From Escherichia phage LH2, in sequence record OQ378934.1: a stretch of 64,000 bases of DNA. The stretch is one strand, 5' to 3'. Of this stretch, positions 2,673 to 62,981 are shown piece by piece. The first letter of the stretch is position 1; every line of letters starts with the position of its first letter. A program made the position numbers and the translations under genes. Below the pieces are notes generated by a model that was given only the letters and a program-made list of their open reading frames with translations, had not been told where the DNA came from and made no database searches.

Positions 2673-5369
2673 ATGAAAGAATTTTATATCTCTATTGAAA
2701 CAGTCGGAAATAGCATTGTTGAACGTTATATTGATGAAAATGGAAAGGAACGTACTCGCGAAGTAGAATATCTTCCGACTATGTTTAGACACTGTAAGGA
2801 AGAATCAAAATACAAAGACATTTACGGTAAAAATTGCGCTCCTCAAAAATTTCCATCAATGAAAGATGCCCGAGATTGGATGAAACGAATGGAAGACATC
2901 GGTCTCGAAGCTCTTGGTATGAACGATTTTAAACTCGCTTATATCAGTGATACATATGGTTCAGAAATTGTTTATGATCGAAAATTTGTTCGTGTAGCTA
3001 ACTGCGACATTGAGGTTACTGGTGATAAATTTCCTGACCCAATGAAAGCAGAATATGAAATTGATGCTATCACTCATTATGATTCAATTGACGACCGTTT
3101 TTACGTCTTTGATTTGTTGAATTCAATGTACGGTTCAGTATCAAAATGGGATGCAAAGTTAGCTGCTAAGCTTGACTGTGAAGGTGGTGATGAAGTTCCT
3201 CAAGAAATTCTTGACCGAGTAATTTATATGCCATTCGATAATGAGCGTGATATGCTCATGGAATATATTAATCTCTGGGAACAGAAACGACCTGCTATTT
3301 TTACTGGTTGGAATATTGAGGGATTTGACGTTCCGTATATCATGAATCGTGTTAAAATGGTTCTCGGTGAACGTAGTATGAAACGTTTCTCTCCAATCGG
3401 TCGAGTAAAATCTAAACTAATTCAAAATATGTACGGTAGCAAAGAAATTTATTCTATTGATGGCGTATCTATTCTTGATTATTTAGATTTGTACAAGAAA
3501 TTCGCATTTACTAATTTGCCATCATTCTCTTTGGAATCAGTTGCTCAACATGAAACCAAAAAAGGTAAATTACCATATGATGGTCCTATTAATAAACTTC
3601 GTGAGACTAATCATCAACGATACATTAGTTATAACATCATTGACGTAGAATCAGTTCAAGCAATTGATAAAATTCGCGGGTTTATTGATCTAGTTTTAAG
3701 TATGTCTTATTACGCTAAAATGCCTTTTTCTGGTGTAATGAGTCCTATTAAAACTTGGGATGCTATTATTTTTAACTCATTGAAAGGTGAACATAAGGTT
3801 ATTCCTCAACAAGGTTCGCACGTTAAACAAAGTTTTCCAGGTGCATTTGTGTTTGAACCTAAACCGATTGCTCGTCGATACATTATGAGTTTTGACTTGA
3901 CGTCTCTGTATCCTAGCATTATTCGTCAGGTTAACATTAGTCCTGAAACTATTCGTGGACAGTTTAAAGTTCATCCAATTCATGAATATATCGCAGGAAC
4001 AGCTCCTAAGCCAAGTGATGAATATTCTTGTTCTCCGAATGGATGGATGTATGATAAGCATCAAGAAGGTATCATTCCAAAGGAAATCGCTAAAGTATTT
4101 TTCCAGCGTAAAGATTGGAAAAAGAAAATGTTCGCTGAAGAAATGAATGCCGAAGCTATTAAAAAGATTATTATGAAAGGTGCAGGGTCTTGTTCAACTA
4201 AACCAGAAGTTGAACGATATGTTAAGTTCAATGATGATTTCTTAAACGAATTATCGAATTACACTGAATCTGTTCTTAATAGTCTGATCGAAGAATGTGA
4301 AAAAGCAGCTACACTTGCTAACACAAATCAGCTGAACCGTAAAATTCTTATTAACAGTCTTTATGGTGCTCTTGGTAATATTCATTTCCGTTACTATGAT
4401 TTGCGAAATGCTACTGCTATCACAATTTTCGGTCAAGTTGGTATTCAGTGGATTGCTCGTAAAATTAATGAATATCTGAATAAAGTATGTGGAACTGATG
4501 GTGAAGATTTCATCGCGGCGGGTGATACTGATTCGGTATATGTTTGTGTAGATAAAGTTATTGAAAAAGTAGGTCTTGACCGCTTTAAAGAACAAAATGA
4601 TTTAGTTGAATTCATGAATCAGTTCGGTAAGAAAAAGATGGAACCTATGATTGATGTTGCATATCGTGAGTTATGTGATTATATGAATAACCGCGAGCAT
4701 CTGATGCATATGGACCGTGAAGCTATTTCTTGCCCTCCACTTGGTTCAAAGGGTGTTGGTGGATTTTGGAAAGCGAAAAAACGTTATGCTCTGAACGTTT
4801 ATGATATGGAAGATAAGCGATTTGCTGAACCACATCTAAAAATCATGGGTATGGAAACTCAGCAGAGTTCAACACCAAAAGCAGTACAAGAAGCTCTCGA
4901 AGAAAGTATTCGTCGTATTCTTCAGGAAGGCGAAGAGTCTGTCCAAGAATACTATAAGAACTTTGAGAAAGAATACCGTCAACTTGACTATAAAGTTATT
5001 GCTGAAGTAAAAACCGCGAACGATATAGCGAAATATGACGATAAAGGTTGGCCAGGGTTTAAATGCCCGTTCCATATTCGTGGTGTACTAACTTATCGTC
5101 GAGCTGTTAGTGGTTTAGGTGTAGCTCCAATTTTGGATGGAAATAAGGTAATGGTTCTTCCATTACGTGAGGGAAATCCATTTGGTGACAAGTGTATTGC
5201 TTGGCCGTCGGGTACGGAACTTCCAAAAGAAATTCGTTCTGATGTACTGTCTTGGATTGACTACTCAACTTTGTTCCAAAAATCGTTTGTTAAACCGCTT
5301 GCGGGCATGTGTGAATCGGCAGGTATGGACTATGAGGAAAAAGCTTCGTTAGACTTCCTGTTTGGCTGA
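2673..5369 (+). CDS. 43: DNA polymerase gp43 (family B)
   Basis: 898 aa; exonuclease and polymerase motifs (YGG, DTDS); recognised as T4 gp43. Confidence 0.97.
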   Translation: MKEFYISIETVGNSIVERYIDENGKERTREVEYLPTMFRHCKEESKYKDIYGKNCAPQKFPSMKDARDWMKRMEDIGLEALGMNDFKLAYISDTYGSEIVYDRKFVRVANCDIEVTGDKFPDPMKAEYEIDAITHYDSIDDRFYVFDLLNSMYGSVSKWDAKLAAKLDCEGGDEVPQEILDRVIYMPFDNERDMLMEYINLWEQKRPAIFTGWNIEGFDVPYIMNRVKMVLGERSMKRFSPIGRVKSKLIQNMYGSKEIYSIDGVSILDYLDLYKKFAFTNLPSFSLESVAQHETKKGKLPYDGPINKLRETNHQRYISYNIIDVESVQAIDKIRGFIDLVLSMSYYAKMPFSGVMSPIKTWDAIIFNSLKGEHKVIPQQGSHVKQSFPGAFVFEPKPIARRYIMSFDLTSLYPSIIRQVNISPETIRGQFKVHPIHEYIAGTAPKPSDEYSCSPNGWMYDKHQEGIIPKEIAKVFFQRKDWKKKMFAEEMNAEAIKKIIMKGAGSCSTKPEVERYVKFNDDFLNELSNYTESVLNSLIEECEKAATLANTNQLNRKILINSLYGALGNIHFRYYDLRNATAITIFGQVGIQWIARKINEYLNKVCGTDGEDFIAAGDTDSVYVCVDKVIEKVGLDRFKEQNDLVEFMNQFGKKKMEPMIDVAYRELCDYMNNREHLMHMDREAISCPPLGSKGVGGFWKAKKRYALNVYDMEDKRFAEPHLKIMGMETQQSSTPKAVQEALEESIRRILQEGEESVQEYYKNFEKEYRQLDYKVIAEVKTANDIAKYDDKGWPGFKCPFHIRGVLTYRRAVSGLGVAPILDGNKVMVLPLREGNPFGDKCIAWPSGTELPKEIRSDVLSWIDYSTLFQKSFVKPLAGMCESAGMDYEEKASLDFLFG

Positions 5370-56735: not shown

Positions 56736-57751
56736 TAATTTAGGCCTGAGTATAAGGTGACTTATACTTGTAATCTATCTAAACGGGGAACCTCTCTAGT
56801 AGACAATCCCGTGCTAAATTGTAGGACTACCCTTTAATAAATACTTCTATATTTAAAGAGGTATTTATGAAAAGTGGAATTTATCAGATTAAAAATACTT
56901 TAAACAATAAAGTATATGTAGGAAGTGCTAAAGATTTTGAAAAGAGATGGAAGAGGCATTTTAAAGACTTAGAAAAAGGATGCCATTCTTCTATAAAACT
57001 TCAAAGGTCTTTTAACAAACACGGTAATGTGTTTGAATGCTCTATTTTGGAAGAAATTCCATATGAGAAAGATTTGATTATTGAACGAGAAAATTTTTGG
57101 ATTAAAGAGCTTAATTCTAAAATTAATGGATACAATATTGCTGATGCAACGTTTGGTGATACATATTCTGTACATCCATTAAAAGAAGAAATTATTAAGA
57201 AACGCTCTGAAACTGTTAAAGTTAAGATGCTTAAGCTTGGCTCTGATGGTCGGAAAGCTCTTTACGGTAAACCCGGAAGCAAAAATGGGCGTTGGAATCC
57301 AGAAACCCATAAGTTTTGTGAATGTGGGGTTCGTATACAAACTTCTGCTTATACTTGTAGTAAATGCAGAAATCGTTCAGGTGAAAATAATTCATTCTTT
57401 AATCATAAGCATTCAGACAAAACTAAATCTAAAATATCAGAAAAAATGAAAGGTAAAAAGCCTAATAATATTAAAAAGATTTCATGTGATGGGATTATTT
57501 TTGAATGTGCAGCTGATGCAGCTAGATATTTTGAAATTTCATCCGGATTAGTTACTTACCGTGTAAAATCTGATAAGTGGAATTGGTTCTACATAAATGC
57601 CTAACGACTATCCCTTTAGGGAGTAGGGTCAAGTGACTCGAAACGATAGACAACTTGCTTTAGCAAGTTGGAGATATAGTCTGCTCTGCATGGTGACATG
57701 CAGCTGGATATAATTCCGGGATAAGATTAACGACCTTATCTGAACATAATG
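56736..57751 (+). mobile_element. td group I self-splicing intron (1016 nt)
   Basis: Interrupts td between ...DVFLG and LPFNIASYA...; exactly 1016 nt as the T4 td intron; contains I-TevI ORF. Confidence 0.9.
56867..57604 (+). CDS. I-TevI: intron-encoded GIY-YIG homing endonuclease I-TevI
   Basis: 245 aa; MKSGIYQIKNTLNNKVYVGSA... GIY-YIG domain, zinc finger and C-terminal HTH. Confidence 0.93.
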   Translation: MKSGIYQIKNTLNNKVYVGSAKDFEKRWKRHFKDLEKGCHSSIKLQRSFNKHGNVFECSILEEIPYEKDLIIERENFWIKELNSKINGYNIADATFGDTYSVHPLKEEIIKKRSETVKVKMLKLGSDGRKALYGKPGSKNGRWNPETHKFCECGVRIQTSAYTCSKCRNRSGENNSFFNHKHSDKTKSKISEKMKGKKPNNIKKISCDGIIFECAADAARYFEISSGLVTYRVKSDKWNWFYINA

Positions 57752-58063
57752 CTTCCATTCAACATTGCCTCGTACGCTGCCTTGACGCATATTGTAGCTA
57801 AGATGTGTAATCTTATTCCAGGAGATTTGATATTTTCTGGTGGTAATACTCATATCTATATGAATCACGTAGAACAATGTAAAGAAATTTTACGTCGTGA
57901 ACCTATGGATTTATGTGAATTACAATTAAAATTTCCAGATGAATTTGATGAATGGGGCACAGAATCTCAGGTATTTTGGTTGAGTCAATTCGCAAAGCCA
58001 CATAATTTTGTTCTTAACAACTATGTATCTCATCCGCCAATTAAAGGAAAGATGGCGGTGTAA
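57752..58063 (+). CDS. td: thymidylate synthase Td, exon 2
   Basis: Resumes LPFNIASYAALTHIVAKMC...; exon 1 plus exon 2 = 286 aa. Confidence 0.93.
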   Translation, partial: LPFNIASYAALTHIVAKMCNLIPGDLIFSGGNTHIYMNHVEQCKEILRREPMDLCELQLKFPDEFDEWGTESQVFWLSQFAKPHNFVLNNYVSHPPIKGKMAV

Positions 58064-58086: not shown

Positions 58087-58332
58087 ATGATTTTACGATT
58101 TAAGGATACTTCTGGTGTCGTTCTTTTTACACTTCCTAATCCAAGTGAACTGGAAGTTCCAGGGCCAGAACAGCCTATTATCATTTATGGCAAAAAATAT
58201 TATACTCATAAAATGACTCGTGAGTATTTTGATAATAAAATTTCTACAGTTAAAACTTCTTCTGATTGTTATTATGATATTACTGTTTTAACGGAAAAAC
58301 AATATGACGAATGCAGAACTTTAGCAGTATAA
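58087..58332 (+). CDS. hypothetical protein
   Basis: ATG 58087 with gagagga RBS; 81 aa. Confidence 0.45.
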
Positions 58333-59052
58333 ATATGATTCCCAGCAATCTAGAGCGCATCTTTTAGATATAAGTTTTCTGCTTATTCCGGTTTGACGCA
58401 CAGCTTCTGCTATTGTTGGATATTCTACCCCATCTATACTTACTCTTAGATGGGGTTTCTTTTTACCTCTTTGCGAGTCAGAAATTCGTTTTCTAACTTC
58501 ATTGGTATGTGTCTGTCCATAATATGGGTTATTGATGCCTTTCATATTAAGTGCAGCGTTTCTTTCTTGGAACTTTTTGCTTATTTCTATAGCACGATCT
58601 AACCCATAGTGTTCTTCTATAGTTTTACCTTTGATATCTCTAGGTCTACCATGTTTTTGCTTAAGTTCTTCTGGTGATAATTTTGAATTATTATTTTTAA
58701 TTGCATTTGAAATTTTATTAAGGATTTCTTTCTTTCTTGGGTGATGAGATAAGGTATCCCCAAACGATGCGTCTGCTATATTATACCCATTTTCCTTTGA
58801 GTCATATTCATGCATCCAATAATTTTCACGTTCAATAATGATAGATTTTTCGTATGGAAGTTCTTCTATGATTTTACATACGAAAGCATCTTTCCCATGC
58901 TTATTATAAGAACGCTGCAGCTTTATTGAATGATGATTTCCATTATCTAAATCTTTAAAGTGTCGTTTCCATCGTTCTTCAAAATTAATTGCACTTCCTA
59001 TATAGTGCTTATTGGTTTTAGTGTTTATAATAGCATATATTCCAGATTTCAT
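58321..59052 (-). CDS. free-standing GIY-YIG endonuclease, I-TevI paralogue (antisense)
   Basis: 243 aa; N-terminal ~115 aa closely parallel to I-TevI ([21 protein letters not shown]...RWKRHFKDL...NGYNIADA); SD aggaga; late promoter upstream. Confidence 0.75.
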
Positions 59053-59074
59053 TATATTCTCCTATATAAAATTA

Positions 59075-59082
59075 TATTTATA
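59075..59082 (-). promoter_or_regulatory. late promoter TATAAATA for antisense GIY-YIG gene
   Basis: Reverse complement of tatttata at 59075-59082, ~23 nt upstream of the minus-strand ATG. Confidence 0.5.
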
Positions 59083-59107
59083 TGGGGTAACTTACTATAG
59101 AGGACTT

Positions 59108-61372
59108 ATGCAATTAATTAATGTTATCAAAAGTAGTGGTGTTTCTCAGAGCTTTGATCCACAAAAAATTATTAAAGTTTTATCTTGGGCAGCTGAAGGA
59201 ACATCTGTAGATCCTTATGAATTATATGAAAATATTAAATCATATCTCCGTGATGGAATGACCACTGATGACATTCAAACCATTGTAATTAAGGCTGCTG
59301 CGAATTCTATTTCAGTTGAAGAGCCTGATTATCAATACGTAGCTGCACGCTGTTTAATGTTTGCTCTTCGTAAGCATGTTTACGGGCAATATGAACCACG
59401 TTCATTTATTGACCATATTTCTTACTGCGTAAATGAAGGTAAATACGACCCTGAATTGTTGTCAAAATATTCTGCAGAAGAAATTACATTTTTAGAATCA
59501 AAAATTAAGCACGAGCGGGATATGGAATTTACTTATTCCGGGGCGATGCAATTAAAAGAAAAATATCTCGTTAAAGATAAAACCACTGGTCAAATTTATG
59601 AAACTCCACAGTTTGCATTTATGACTATTGGAATGGCATTGCATCAAGATGAACCTGTTGATAGACTAAAACACGTTATTCGTTTTTATGAAGCAGTATC
59701 TACTCGACAGATTTCATTACCAACTCCTATTATGGCTGGTTGCCGTACTCCAACTCGGCAGTTTAGTTCATGCGTTGTTATCGAGGCGGGTGATTCGCTG
59801 AAGTCTATCAACAAGGCTTCCGCTTCAATTGTTGAATATATCTCCAAACGCGCTGGAATTGGTATTAACGTTGGTATGATTCGTGCTGAAGGTTCTAAGA
59901 TTGGCACAGGTGAAGTACGTCATACTGGTGTTATTCCTTTTTGGAAACATTTTCAGACTGCTGTTAAATCATGCTCACAGGGTGGAATTCGTGGCGGCGC
60001 TGCTACTGCTTATTATCCTATTTGGCATTTGGAAGTTGAAAATCTTCTCGTTTTGAAAAATAACAAAGGTGTAGAAGAAAACCGTATCCGTCATATGGAT
60101 TATGGTGTTCAGCTGAATGACCTAATGATGGAACGATTCGGAAAGAACGATTACATTACTTTGTTTAGTCCGCATGAAATGGGTGGCGAGCTTTATTATT
60201 CTTATTTTAAAGACCAAGACCGTTTCCGCGAATTATACGAAGCAGCAGAAAAAGACCCTAATATTCGCAAAAAGCGTATTAAAGCCCGTGAACTATTTGA
60301 ATTACTCATGACTGAACGATCAGGAACAGCAAGGATTTATGTACAGTTCATTGATAATACGAATAACTATACTCCATTTATTCGTGAAAAGGCACCTATT
60401 CGTCAGAGTAACTTGTGTTGTGAAATTGCTATTCCAACAAATGATGTGAATAGTCCTGATGCTGAAATCGGATTGTGTACCCTTAGCGCATTTGTGTTGG
60501 ATAACTTCGATTGGCAAGACCAAGATAAAATTAATGAATTGGCAGAAGTCCAAGTTCGCGCTCTTGATAATCTTTTGGATTACCAAGGATATCCAGTTCC
60601 TGAAGCAGAAAAAGCTAAAAAGCGTCGAAATCTTGGTGTAGGTGTTACTAACTATGCAGCTTGGCTGGCAAGCAACTTTGCTTCTTATGAAGATGCTAAC
60701 GATTTAACACATGAACTATTTGAGAGACTACAGTATGGACTCATTAAAGCATCCATTAAGCTCGCCAAAGAAAAAGGACCTTGCGAATATTATTCAGACA
60801 CTCGTTGGTCTCGAGGCGAATTACCTATCGACTGGTACAATAAAAAGATTGACCAAATCGCAGCTCCAAAATACGTTTGTGACTGGTCGGCGCTGCGGGA
60901 AGACCTTAAGCTCTTTGGCATCCGTAATAGCACATTATCAGCACTTATGCCATGTGAGTCATCTTCCCAAGTTTCTAACAGTACAAACGGTATCGAGCCT
61001 CCACGTGGACCAGTCTCTGTTAAAGAGTCAAAAGAGGGTTCCTTTAATCAAGTCGTGCCCAATATTGAACATAACATAGACCTCTATGATTATACGTGGA
61101 AATTAGCTAAGAAAGGTAATAAACCTTATCTTACGCAGGTAGCTATTATGCTGAAATGGGTATGTCAATCAGCTTCAGCGAATACATATTATGACCCGCA
61201 GATTTTTCCAAAAGGAAAGGTTCCAATGTCTGTAATGATTGATGACATGCTATACGGATGGTATTATGGCATTAAAAACTTCTATTATCATAATACCCGC
61301 GATGGTTCTGGTACTGATGATTATGAAATAGAAACTCCAAAAGCTGAAGATTGTTCATCCTGTAAATTATGA
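59108..61372 (+). CDS. nrdA: ribonucleotide reductase large subunit NrdA
   Basis: ATG 59108; 754 aa; ATP-cone N-terminus; recognised as T4 NrdA. Confidence 0.95.
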   Translation: MQLINVIKSSGVSQSFDPQKIIKVLSWAAEGTSVDPYELYENIKSYLRDGMTTDDIQTIVIKAAANSISVEEPDYQYVAARCLMFALRKHVYGQYEPRSFIDHISYCVNEGKYDPELLSKYSAEEITFLESKIKHERDMEFTYSGAMQLKEKYLVKDKTTGQIYETPQFAFMTIGMALHQDEPVDRLKHVIRFYEAVSTRQISLPTPIMAGCRTPTRQFSSCVVIEAGDSLKSINKASASIVEYISKRAGIGINVGMIRAEGSKIGTGEVRHTGVIPFWKHFQTAVKSCSQGGIRGGAATAYYPIWHLEVENLLVLKNNKGVEENRIRHMDYGVQLNDLMMERFGKNDYITLFSPHEMGGELYYSYFKDQDRFRELYEAAEKDPNIRKKRIKARELFELLMTERSGTARIYVQFIDNTNNYTPFIREKAPIRQSNLCCEIAIPTNDVNSPDAEIGLCTLSAFVLDNFDWQDQDKINELAEVQVRALDNLLDYQGYPVPEAEKAKKRRNLGVGVTNYAAWLASNFASYEDANDLTHELFERLQYGLIKASIKLAKEKGPCEYYSDTRWSRGELPIDWYNKKIDQIAAPKYVCDWSALREDLKLFGIRNSTLSALMPCESSSQVSNSTNGIEPPRGPVSVKESKEGSFNQVVPNIEHNIDLYDYTWKLAKKGNKPYLTQVAIMLKWVCQSASANTYYDPQIFPKGKVPMSVMIDDMLYGWYYGIKNFYYHNTRDGSGTDDYEIETPKAEDCSSCKL

Positions 61373-61388
61373 TATAATTACCACAAGG

Positions 61389-62981
61389 ATGTGGTTAACT
61401 AAGAATAACGCTATGTTTGATAATATATACAAAAACGGAAAGTTTCTTCCATTTGGAGAAGAAAAACTTAAATCTAGACTAACAGAAGAAGATAAAGCTC
61501 TTCTAACTGATGGAATAGATTTTAAGCTCAATGTGTTCCAAATTATGGAAGGCATTGACATTAACGATCTAAAATGTGCAGTTTGTGGAAATTTCATTTC
61601 TCTGAAAACAGCAAAGAAACGTGTATTTCCAGCAACATGTAGTAAATCCTGCGCAGGGATATTTTTCGCGGATAAGAGAATTCAAAGCCGTGATACAAAT
61701 TTTGGCGGAAAAGAAAAATATAAAAAATATTTGTCTGAACTTCAACACAAAAATTCTTTAGAAAAATATGGAACAACTCATCAAAAAATTTCAAGAAATA
61801 AAAATAGAAAAACTTTAATTGAACGATATGGGGTAACGCATAATTCACAATTAGAAAGTGTGAAAGAAGCGAGAAAAGTTATAGAAAACGGTAAATCAGT
61901 TGATATTCTGCATTCTAGAAAATCTCGCGAAAAATCTAAGAAGACTAAATTAAATTGGACTAAAGAATATAAGGCATCGTTATATTCATCTATAGGAAAA
62001 TCTATTAAAAATAACGGTCATATTAATCATGATATACTAGATAAAATCAATTACAAAATTTCTATAGAAGAACTACAACAATTAGCAAATTGTTCTCGGA
62101 TGACGGCTTATAGAGCTCTTTCATCCAAAGGACTAATTGACGTTCATTATACTCAAAGTTCTATAGAGCAGTTCATTTTAGATCTAGGATTTGATTGCGT
62201 AGAAACTAGAAAAATTATTCCTCCGTATGAATTAGATATTTACATTCCTGAGAAAAAATTGGCTATAGAATACGATGGAATTTATTGGCATTCTAGCGGG
62301 TCAAAGGAAACAGATAAAATTAAAGAAACTTATCATTTGATGAAGACAGAGATGTGTGAAGCACAAGGAATTCAATTACTTCACATCTTCGAAAATGAAT
62401 GGATTGATGATACAAAAAGAGAGATCTGGAAATCCATTATAAAGCATAAATTAGGATTATCAGAAAGAATACCAGCCCGAAAATGCAAAGCACGGTTTGT
62501 TAATAAGGATGAGGCAAAAGAATTTATTAATAAGAATCATCTTCAAGGATTTTGCTCAGGAGCTCATACGTATAAAGGACTTTATTACAATAATGAGTTA
62601 GTTCAAATTATTTCTATCGGTAAATCTAGATATAGCTCAGGTGATGAACTTTTAAGGATGTGTTCAAAATTAGGGGTTTGTGTTGTAGGAGGAGCCTCAA
62701 AATTATTAAAAGGAATTAATTGTCTATCTTATGGCAATCGAAGATGGTGCAGTACATTATCAAATGTTTATGACTCTGTCATGGAATTTAGTCATATCTC
62801 TGAGCCATGTTATTGGTACGTCGATAAAGGAGAGGTATTTCACCGCTCAAGCTATATGAAACATAAGCTTAAAAACAAGCTTAAAAATTATGATGATACA
62901 ATAACTGAAGTAGAAAATTGTTATGCAAATGGTCTTAGAAGAATCTGGGACTGTGGAAATTTAGTTTACAGGACAAAATAA
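61389..62981 (+). CDS. multidomain nuclease-like protein (putative free-standing homing endonuclease)
   Basis: 530 aa; zinc ribbon CAVCGN...CSKSC, KYGTTHQ/RYGVTHN repeats, HTH-like stretch, Vsr/DUF559-like PYELDIYIPEKKLAIEYDGIYWHS; start may be ATG 61413. Confidence 0.55.
   Translation: MWLTKNNAMFDNIYKNGKFLPFGEEKLKSRLTEEDKALLTDGIDFKLNVFQIMEGIDINDLKCAVCGNFISLKTAKKRVFPATCSKSCAGIFFADKRIQSRDTNFGGKEKYKKYLSELQHKNSLEKYGTTHQKISRNKNRKTLIERYGVTHNSQLESVKEARKVIENGKSVDILHSRKSREKSKKTKLNWTKEYKASLYSSIGKSIKNNGHINHDILDKINYKISIEELQQLANCSRMTAYRALSSKGLIDVHYTQSSIEQFILDLGFDCVETRKIIPPYELDIYIPEKKLAIEYDGIYWHSSGSKETDKIKETYHLMKTEMCEAQGIQLLHIFENEWIDDTKREIWKSIIKHKLGLSERIPARKCKARFVNKDEAKEFINKNHLQGFCSGAHTYKGLYYNNELVQIISIGKSRYSSGDELLRMCSKLGVCVVGGASKLLKGINCLSYGNRRWCSTLSNVYDSVMEFSHISEPCYWYVDKGEVFHRSSYMKHKLKNKLKNYDDTITEVENCYANGLRRIWDCGNLVYRTK

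Follow-up and report, generated by a model that had tools for sequence, protein, structure and literature searches.

Among GIY-YIG homing endonucleases, I-TevI serves as the reference, and it is also a module for genome editing; it cleaves its td homing site 23/25 nucleotides (nt) from the intron insertion site, and its expression is kept late by a hairpin that sequesters the ribosome-binding site (RBS). Its relative I-BmoI, the endonuclease of the Bacillus thyA intron, has no zinc finger and carries NUMOD3 repeats and a C-terminal helix-turn-helix (HTH), whereas the seg genes are free-standing GIY-YIG endonucleases that drive intronless homing. The free-standing endonucleases of T4 are expressed from middle or late promoters, never from early ones, and I-TevI represses itself through an operator that overlaps its own late promoter (PMC2988022). 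In collaborative, or trans, homing, a free-standing endonuclease works together with an intron that has no open reading frame (ORF) of its own, as mobE does with the nrdB intron (PMC3984707, PMC2790892). In this study, we analyzed a minus-strand ORF of 243 amino acids (aa) in a 64,000-nt stretch of Escherichia phage LH2 (OQ378934.1), which we call the window. The ORF sits outside the td intron, between nrdA.2 and nrdA; the intron itself carries the I-TevI gene resident in the window. We consider it probable that the ORF encodes a functional, late-expressed, free-standing homing endonuclease of the I-TevI branch, carried on a 787-base-pair (bp) cassette that homes into the nrdA.1/nrdA region. 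In several phages, genes in the same slot are annotated in GenBank as "homing endonuclease," "endonuclease I-TevI," or "putative intron endonuclease"; in the searchable literature we found no paper that describes or characterizes this ORF or the I-TevI-like genes in the same slot.

The protein and its kinship with I-TevI

The window represents part of a mosaic Tequatrovirus (T4-like) genome, and gp32, frd, td (whose intron contains I-TevI), nrdA.2, nrdA, a Hef-like ORF, and nrdB follow one another on its plus strand. Direct reading of the sequence places the ORF where the original prediction had put it, on the minus strand, with its own Shine-Dalgarno (SD) sequence and an exact late promoter, and it is indeed surrounded by plus-strand genes from gp32 through nrdB. 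The start codon is an ATG at 59052-59050, separated by 55 nt from the nrdA ATG at 59108 on the opposite strand. As a stand-alone ORF in a slot between the conserved td/nrdA.2 genes and nrdA, the gene is free-standing.

Judged from its sequence, the protein is a full-length homologue within the I-TevI branch of the GIY-YIG homing endonucleases. BLASTP aligns it with the resident I-TevI over residues 1 to 240 (110/242 identities, 45%; expect value [E] 3e-70), and PHROG assigns it to "homing endonuclease." Its catalytic domain matches the solved structures PDB 1MK0/1LN0 at E 1e-39 (1.1e-39 for 1MK0), and an AlphaFold model of the protein has a predicted local distance difference test (pLDDT) score of 88.8; in Foldseek, the modeled catalytic domain is predicted to superimpose on 1MK0 with a template modeling (TM) score of 0.98, a root mean square deviation of 0.6 A, and 68% identity. 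The catalytic residues of I-TevI are Y6, Y17, R27, H31, H40, E75, and N90. In an alignment of 57 homologues, Y17, G19, R27, H31, H40, E76, and N91 are invariant and Y6 is conserved in at least 90%, and the window ORF has every one of them, which answers the original prediction's own proposal that loss of catalytic residues would mark a pseudogene.

The original prediction had built on a likeness to I-TevI over the first ∼115 residues and had held that the C-terminal half differs. The catalytic likeness is present, but it is not confined to that part of the protein, since the BLASTP similarity runs to residue 240, and the claim about the C-terminal half falls: the NUMOD3 and HTH regions are homologous to those of I-TevI according to Pfam and to the match with PDB 1I3J (phmmer E 2.9e-7 across residues 156 to 239; Foldseek E 2.2e-4), and only the linker zinc finger is absent. 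The Pfam model of the I-TevI DNA-binding domain (PF20987, I-TevI_DNA-bd) scores 21.4 bits on the ORF, under its 27-bit cutoff. The zinc finger model PF22635 has no Pfam match in the ORF, compared to 3.7e-20 for the resident I-TevI, and the four zinc finger cysteine positions (Cys151/153/164/167) read Q-RA in the ORF alignment.

Close copies of the ORF are intact in 11/11 cases examined, with ratios of nonsynonymous to synonymous substitution rates (dN/dS) of 0.03 to 0.14 (about 0.1). Going by these ratios, the ORF is under purifying selection and is not a decaying pseudogene; together with the intact catalytic residues, they are in keeping with the original view of a second, free-standing, and apparently functional member of the I-TevI family. 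The idea that we are dealing with a decaying or silent pseudogene, or with a chance reading frame, could draw on T4 segD, the other antisense seg gene, which is thought to be barely expressed (PMC2988022). Given an E value of 3e-70 to I-TevI, the intactness of every copy at a dN/dS of ∼0.1, a well-spaced SD with a conserved late promoter, and a predicted fold of high confidence, we regard this as improbable in the extreme.

How the ORF and I-TevI are related can be read from a neighbor-joining (NJ) tree of 72 homologues, in which all proteins with the zinc finger (CCCC), the T4-type and the window I-TevI included, form one clade, and the window ORF falls in a separate, zinc finger-less clade. 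The window ORF and the window I-TevI gene share ∼70% nt identity, and this in the catalytic part only. Because the homology embraces the whole gene, because even the catalytic part reaches only ∼70% nt identity, and because the NJ clades are separate, these sequence comparisons indicate that the ORF and I-TevI share an old whole-gene ancestry, rather than being the products of a recent duplication or of a swapped catalytic module. An exchange of catalytic cassettes with I-TevI, for which the locus had been put forward as an example, is not supported by the same three observations.

The cassette and the slot it occupies

Alignment with T6-type phages that lack the ORF reveals sharp boundaries: homology ends at 58312 and restarts at 59100, and the 787-bp cassette stands where T6 has ∼300 bp that encode the last part of nrdA.2 and the whole of nrdA.1. 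The C terminus of NrdA.2 is rewritten by the cassette in the window, the T6 counterpart ending in QYAELSPRGPSMSGSE directly before its stop codon. The presence/absence polymorphism predicted among T4-like phages exists. Eight of 732 matching phage records (mostly Tequatrovirus) carry the cassette, namely, CJY920, RPN226, TB004, sutha, N2, ECO07P5, and Ozark (two records), and so do 18 of 169 Jiaodavirus-type Klebsiella phage records, where td is intronless and only the cassette separates it from nrdA. At an aa identity of at least 80%, the ORF is found in 26 phage records; a scan of IMG/VR for close relatives returned two distant matches only.

The carriers differ in what has been lost beside the cassette. 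In cassette-free Jiaodaviruses the order is td, a 68-aa gene, nrdA.1 (DUF4326), and nrdA; Jiaodavirus carriers are without both small genes, and Tequatrovirus carriers retain nrdA.2. Homologues of NrdA.1 (DUF4326) occur in 17/17 loci that lack the ORF, and none was found in the cassette-bearing loci examined or across the 64-kb window. nrdA.1 and the ORF are alternative occupants of one slot and never occur together.

On sequence grounds, it is clear that the cassette has moved between the genera Tequatrovirus and Jiaodavirus, because it is 93% identical at the nt level between the window and Jiaodavirus KP179 (over 58320-59102), compared to 72% in nrdA and 68 to 74% in td. The word "paralogue," by which the original prediction implied a local duplicate, has to be abandoned, as the cassette came horizontally: its match to the Klebsiella Jiaodavirus copies stands at 93% against flanks of ∼72%. 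The similarity is unevenly spread within the ORF, with 4 mismatches between the window ORF and KP179 (L005 4001-4732) in the first 300 nt and 50 in the next 415 nt. The recombination breakpoint within the free-standing lineage coincides with the boundary between catalytic domain and linker, and the promoter-proximal GIY-YIG part is the more alike of the two. We also considered a nucleotide-level constraint as the cause of the low dS in the 5' third of the ORF and rejected it, as dS is saturated there in the comparison with locus L032; from the sequences, recent recombination appears to be the better reading.

Slot, strand, and promoter geometry persist far beyond the close copies. Homologues that are 99 to 45% identical to the ORF occupy the td-nrdA interval without exception, in opposite orientation to these two genes and divergent from nrdA (21 loci), with identities of 78% in L040 and L041, 75% in L032, 54 to 56% in L031, L033, L038, and L039, 51% in AbTZA1, 47% in Meroveus, and 45% in L035. 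The orthologous lineage, defined by the minus-strand ORF in the slot between td and nrdA, a late promoter, and the lack of a zinc finger, includes Jiaodavirus KP179, PKO111, and Nispero and the Acinetobacter phages AbTZA1 and Meroveus; proteins of Kimel and Ac42 are placed in it by sequence match alone. Every homologue locus read upstream has the late promoter consensus TATAAATA some 30 to 40 nt 5' of the ATG (13 loci were measured, giving -30 to -36, and it is visible in 5 further intergenic regions), despite intergenic DNA that is otherwise unalignable at the loci with lower identity. It is this recurrent placement that lends TATAAATA its significance at the ORF.

Expression, target, and alternative readings

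We propose that the antisense placement would shield the ORF from early and middle read-through of frd-td-nrdA, as read-through RNA could not express it. A gp55-dependent late promoter would then be its sole route of expression, and the enzyme would appear late, during recombination-dependent replication. In a mixed infection, it would introduce a staggered double-strand break into the nrdA.1/nrdA region of a cassette-lacking phage, and repair off the cassette-bearing genome would copy the cassette in and delete nrdA.1. A carrier would be immune since its target is lost along with nrdA.1, and immunity of this kind is consistent with the absence of protective substitutions in the flanks. The conserved 11-mer TTACCCCATAT at the promoter may serve autorepression, as in I-TevI. 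Within this scheme, we infer that the ORF is transcribed late and its product cleaves DNA, where the target lies, and that TTACCCCATAT acts as an operator; the ORF would obey the late-only rule through antisense placement and a late promoter, a route unlike the hairpin of I-TevI.

TTACCCCATAT is present in four sub-lineages, whose proteins are 54 to 99% identical to the window ORF, and takes one of three positions: overlapping TATAAATA, 8 nt upstream of TATAAATA, or between SD and ATG. The longest common k-mer in 2000 shuffles was 7, compared to the 11-mer observed. By analogy with the I-TevI operator (CTACCC...AATAAATA), TTACCCCATAT may be an autorepression operator. The 12-mer GTTACCCCATAT, the same as the conserved promoter element at 59080-59091, showed no consistent site in cassette-free loci. 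As a separate observation, an exact second copy of GTTACCCCATAT at 61826-61837 (minus strand) falls within the coding sequence of the Hef-like ORF (RYGVT when read on the plus strand) and is unexplained; by a rough estimate, not a computed one, the chance expectation for such a second copy in the window is of the order of 0.01.

The cassette may also bring a substitute promoter for nrdA, at 59006-59031. The middle-promoter-like element there, TGCTT-N15-TATAAT, is kept in sutha, Nispero, and L032, and ORF-lacking alleles have an invariant extended -10-like CATGGTGATATAAT within nrdA.1 instead. The pattern TGCTT-N13-15-TANNNT is enriched in the window as a whole (34 found versus 15 expected). 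The embedded element bears on a further explanation, in which the protein has been domesticated and does not home: it would regulate the divergent nrdA region via TTACCCCATAT, or its cassette would supply the nrdA promoter, with mostly vertical inheritance and occasional loss. Such a role would suit a slot, strand, and geometry that persist from 99% to 45% protein identity, a conserved 11-mer in the shared intergenic region, and a middle-promoter-like nrdA element embedded in the ORF, all the more so as embedded host promoters favor retention (PMC2988022), but it sits badly with nuclease catalytic residues that are all invariant, with low and patchy frequencies within species-level groups (8/732 and 18/169), with the clear transfer between genera, and with the fact that most phages thrive with nrdA.1 in the slot. 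We therefore rate domestication as very unlikely.

The relatives of the ORF draw attention to td as a possible target. In L034, an I-TevI-family gene lies just 3' of td on the same strand; in the metagenomic locus L037 (3293-5231), an I-TevI-like gene splits td at residue 176/177, 7 codons 5' of the T4 intron site; and in L036, likewise metagenomic (3055-5124), an I-TevI-like gene stands 3' of a complete td and ahead of a second, diverged copy of td residues 177 to 286. Each family clade examined is thus physically tied to td, whether in introns or splits, 3' on the same strand, or 3' on the opposite strand, and in most lineages the 3' end of the ORF abuts or overlaps the td stop codon. These ties favor the explanation that td, rather than nrdA.1, is targeted, in that the enzyme would have kept the ancestral thymidylate synthase specificity of I-TevI and I-BmoI and would spread by co-conversion of adjacent DNA. 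It would then be a trans-homing helper wherever the td intron has no ORF, and a free-standing stage from which I-TevI arose or into which it escaped. In line with this, the free-standing ORF is accompanied in N2 (L004 5302-5555) and CJY920 (L008 2899-3152) by a td intron of 254 nt that has no ORF, its C-terminal DNA-binding domain and that of I-TevI are homologous, the TTACCC beside the late promoter of the ORF is close to the I-TevI operator, and the concept of collaborative homing has been described (PMC3984707).

Nevertheless, we think a td target unlikely. The carriers with an intronless td (ECO07P5, Ozark, Nispero, KP179, L032, and L033) have no allele-specific changes at td nt 505 to 600 and would, if td were the target, be sensitive to their own enzyme; a comparison of this intron-insertion region between carriers, the intronless ones included, and non-carriers revealed mosaic synonymous variation only and no association with the cassette. 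The HTH is ∼30% identical to that of I-TevI and the zinc finger distance determinant is gone, so that specificity is probably altered. Moreover, the cassette occurs alike with an I-TevI-bearing td intron (window, sutha, RPN226, TB004, L031, and L041), with the ORF-less intron of N2 and CJY920, and with an intronless td (ECO07P5, Ozark, and the Jiaodaviruses). About 37 phage records have ORF-less or shortened td introns; with 2 carriers among these ∼37, compared to 8/732 overall, ORF-less introns are not clearly enriched in carriers, the difference being too weak.

A wider conjecture, which we offer tentatively and would not bet on, is that the lineage with the minus-strand ORF between td and nrdA is a free-standing sister or ancestor of I-TevI that still recognizes td DNA and autoregulates via TTACCCCATAT. 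If true, td segments and ORF-less td introns would be mobilized in trans by collaborative homing, the best-studied phage homing endonuclease would have a living example of the route in which a free-standing endonuclease invades an intron, and the zinc finger distance determinant would prove to be younger, having been added within the intron-borne clade.

Homing of the cassette into the nrdA.1/nrdA region is the reading that we prefer, and several results weigh against it. No cleavage site for the enzyme was identified in silico. A comparison of 8 carriers with 6 non-carriers, covering the 5' part of nrdA (59100-59800), nrdA.2, and td exon 2, gave no fixed flanking differences and no co-conversion tracts outside 58313-59099. 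When the promoter region was compared to the nrdA.1 segment that the cassette replaces, to the allele of cassette-free Jiaodaviruses, and to the td exons, the best matches were 14-16/22, not above shuffles, and by this comparison the ORF appears to lack an operator/homing-site pair like that of I-TevI. Across the window, exact TATAAATA shows no enrichment, with 7 occurrences on both strands versus 10.7 expected; the motif by itself is not significant, and the putative late promoter is called from position and conservation. Finally, the other clades of the family are all tied to td, which suits a target in td no less well than one in nrdA.1.

Some further features of the region deserve mention. 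The last ∼170 nt of td (∼57900-58060) occur in at least 3 haplotypes, with ∼58 to 63% nt identity among Tequatroviruses that are otherwise 92 to 97% identical in td, and the same divergence is seen within Jiaodavirus (62.7% between KP179 and Nispero). These hypervariable haplotypes do not track the cassette, as the window is T6-type and the haplotype common in carriers is also present in one non-carrier. A second exact TATAAATA, at 58328-58335 on the plus strand, lies within the last codons of the ORF (YLYC) and is directed toward nrdA; it would yield late antisense RNA over the ORF, is kept in close relatives only, and may be coincidental. A short palindromic hairpin, GCACT..AGTGC, is found at 58991-59008 (both strands) within the 5' region of the ORF, with T-rich tracts after it. 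Its stem is weak (5 bp), and a scan gave 3 terminator-like sites in this stretch versus 0.9 expected.

Other endonuclease genes are found close by. The gap between nrdA and nrdB, which holds mobE in T4 and T6, is filled in the window by a gene for a 530-aa Hef-like homing endonuclease (61389-62981, plus strand), identified by PHROG 3339 (E 3e-151), a weak match to Pfam REase_MTES_1575, and its annotation in N2 as a "putative Hef-like homing endonuclease." In RPN226 (L009 4509-7677) and L031 (1765-4919), an HNH/NUMOD endonuclease gene divides nrdA into two parts, which recalls the mobE-split nrdA known from Aeromonas phage Aeh1. The features of the locus are collected in Table 1.

Table 1. Coordinates of the features at the td-nrdA locus of the window
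Feature	Position	Strand	Basis or remark
Free-standing GIY-YIG homing endonuclease coding sequence, 243 aa, stop included	58321..59052	-	ORF list, BLASTP, Pfam, PHROG
GIY-YIG catalytic domain, residues 1-98	58759..59052	-	Pfam PF01541, E 6.9e-15
NUMOD3 motif, residues 171-191	58480..58542	-	Pfam PF07460, E 2e-6, two stretches
C-terminal I-TevI-type HTH DNA-binding domain (predicted), residues 201-238	58339..58452	-	Pfam PF20987 and PDB 1I3J
SD sequence AGGAG, 6-nt spacer to ATG	59059..59063	-	Sequence reading; purine-rich SD kept in homologues
T4-type late promoter consensus TATAAATA, 30 nt 5' of ORF ATG	59075..59082	-	Sequence reading and conservation
Conserved 11-mer TTACCCCATAT, overlapping the late promoter; candidate operator	59080..59090	-	Common to four sub-lineages
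Middle-promoter-like (MotA-type) TGCTT-N15-TATAAT, antisense within ORF 5' coding region, 77 nt before nrdA ATG	59006..59031	+	Pattern; candidate
Mobile cassette, 787 bp: ORF, SD, and late promoter	58313..59099		Alignment with ORF-lacking T6-type phages
nrdA.2 (DUF5496)	58087..58332	+	Last 7 codons and stop from cassette; 12-nt convergent overlap with ORF 3' end
Resident intron-encoded I-TevI, comparison partner outside the cassette	56867..57604	+	Carries zinc finger PF22635

Comparison with described homing endonucleases

As a natural, zinc finger-less, free-standing relative of I-TevI, the ORF product offers a comparison for the linker architecture that sets cleavage distance, and it is a test case for the kinship of free-standing and intron-borne endonucleases. 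The locus also tests the logic of late-only expression, by setting antisense placement and a late promoter against the RBS sequestration of I-TevI. In addition, it is a clean example of how a cassette passes from one genus of T4-like phages to another and of how one allele replaces another (nrdA.1 versus an endonuclease) beside essential genes of nucleotide metabolism. If the ORF is merely another seg-like gene with a target in the nrdA.1 region, this is ordinary phage biology.

The closest described enzyme is I-TevI itself, with which the ORF product shares a GIY-YIG domain of 68% identity with the same catalytic residues, a long linker, NUMOD3, and a C-terminal HTH. The two are also alike in size (243 aa for the ORF, 245 aa for I-TevI), in their residence next to td, and in a late-promoter-type signal with a C-rich element (TACCC) alongside. 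They differ in that the ORF is outside an intron, on the strand opposite to its host genes, without a zinc finger, and in a separate clade, and in that the ORF has the canonical TATAAATA where I-TevI has AATAAATA. Likened by description only, I-BmoI resembles the ORF in having no zinc finger and in its tie to a thymidylate synthase gene, and unlike the ORF it is intron encoded. Collaborative homing is called to mind by N2 and CJY920, where an ORF-less td intron is accompanied by an adjacent free-standing relative of the intron enzyme; the difference is that the window itself holds an intact I-TevI and that cutting at the td intron site by the ORF enzyme would be conjectural.

With the T4 seg genes (segA to segG), the ORF has in common that it is free-standing, intergenic, sporadic, and of the middle/late expression type (PMC2988022). 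It shares with segD the antisense orientation to its neighbors (PMC2988022), but segD has no identified promoter, whereas the ORF has a well-placed promoter and SD. It further departs from the seg genes in being far closer to I-TevI, over its full length, than the phrase "similar to endonucleases of group I introns" conveys, and in that its self-immunity appears to come from deletion or splitting of the target slot rather than from point polymorphisms. The ORF is thus an uncharacterized addition to the well-known free-standing GIY-YIG homing endonucleases of T4-like phages, and what is unusual in it, though not unprecedented, is its full-length kinship with I-TevI, its antisense placement with a strong late promoter, and its long-term fidelity to one slot.

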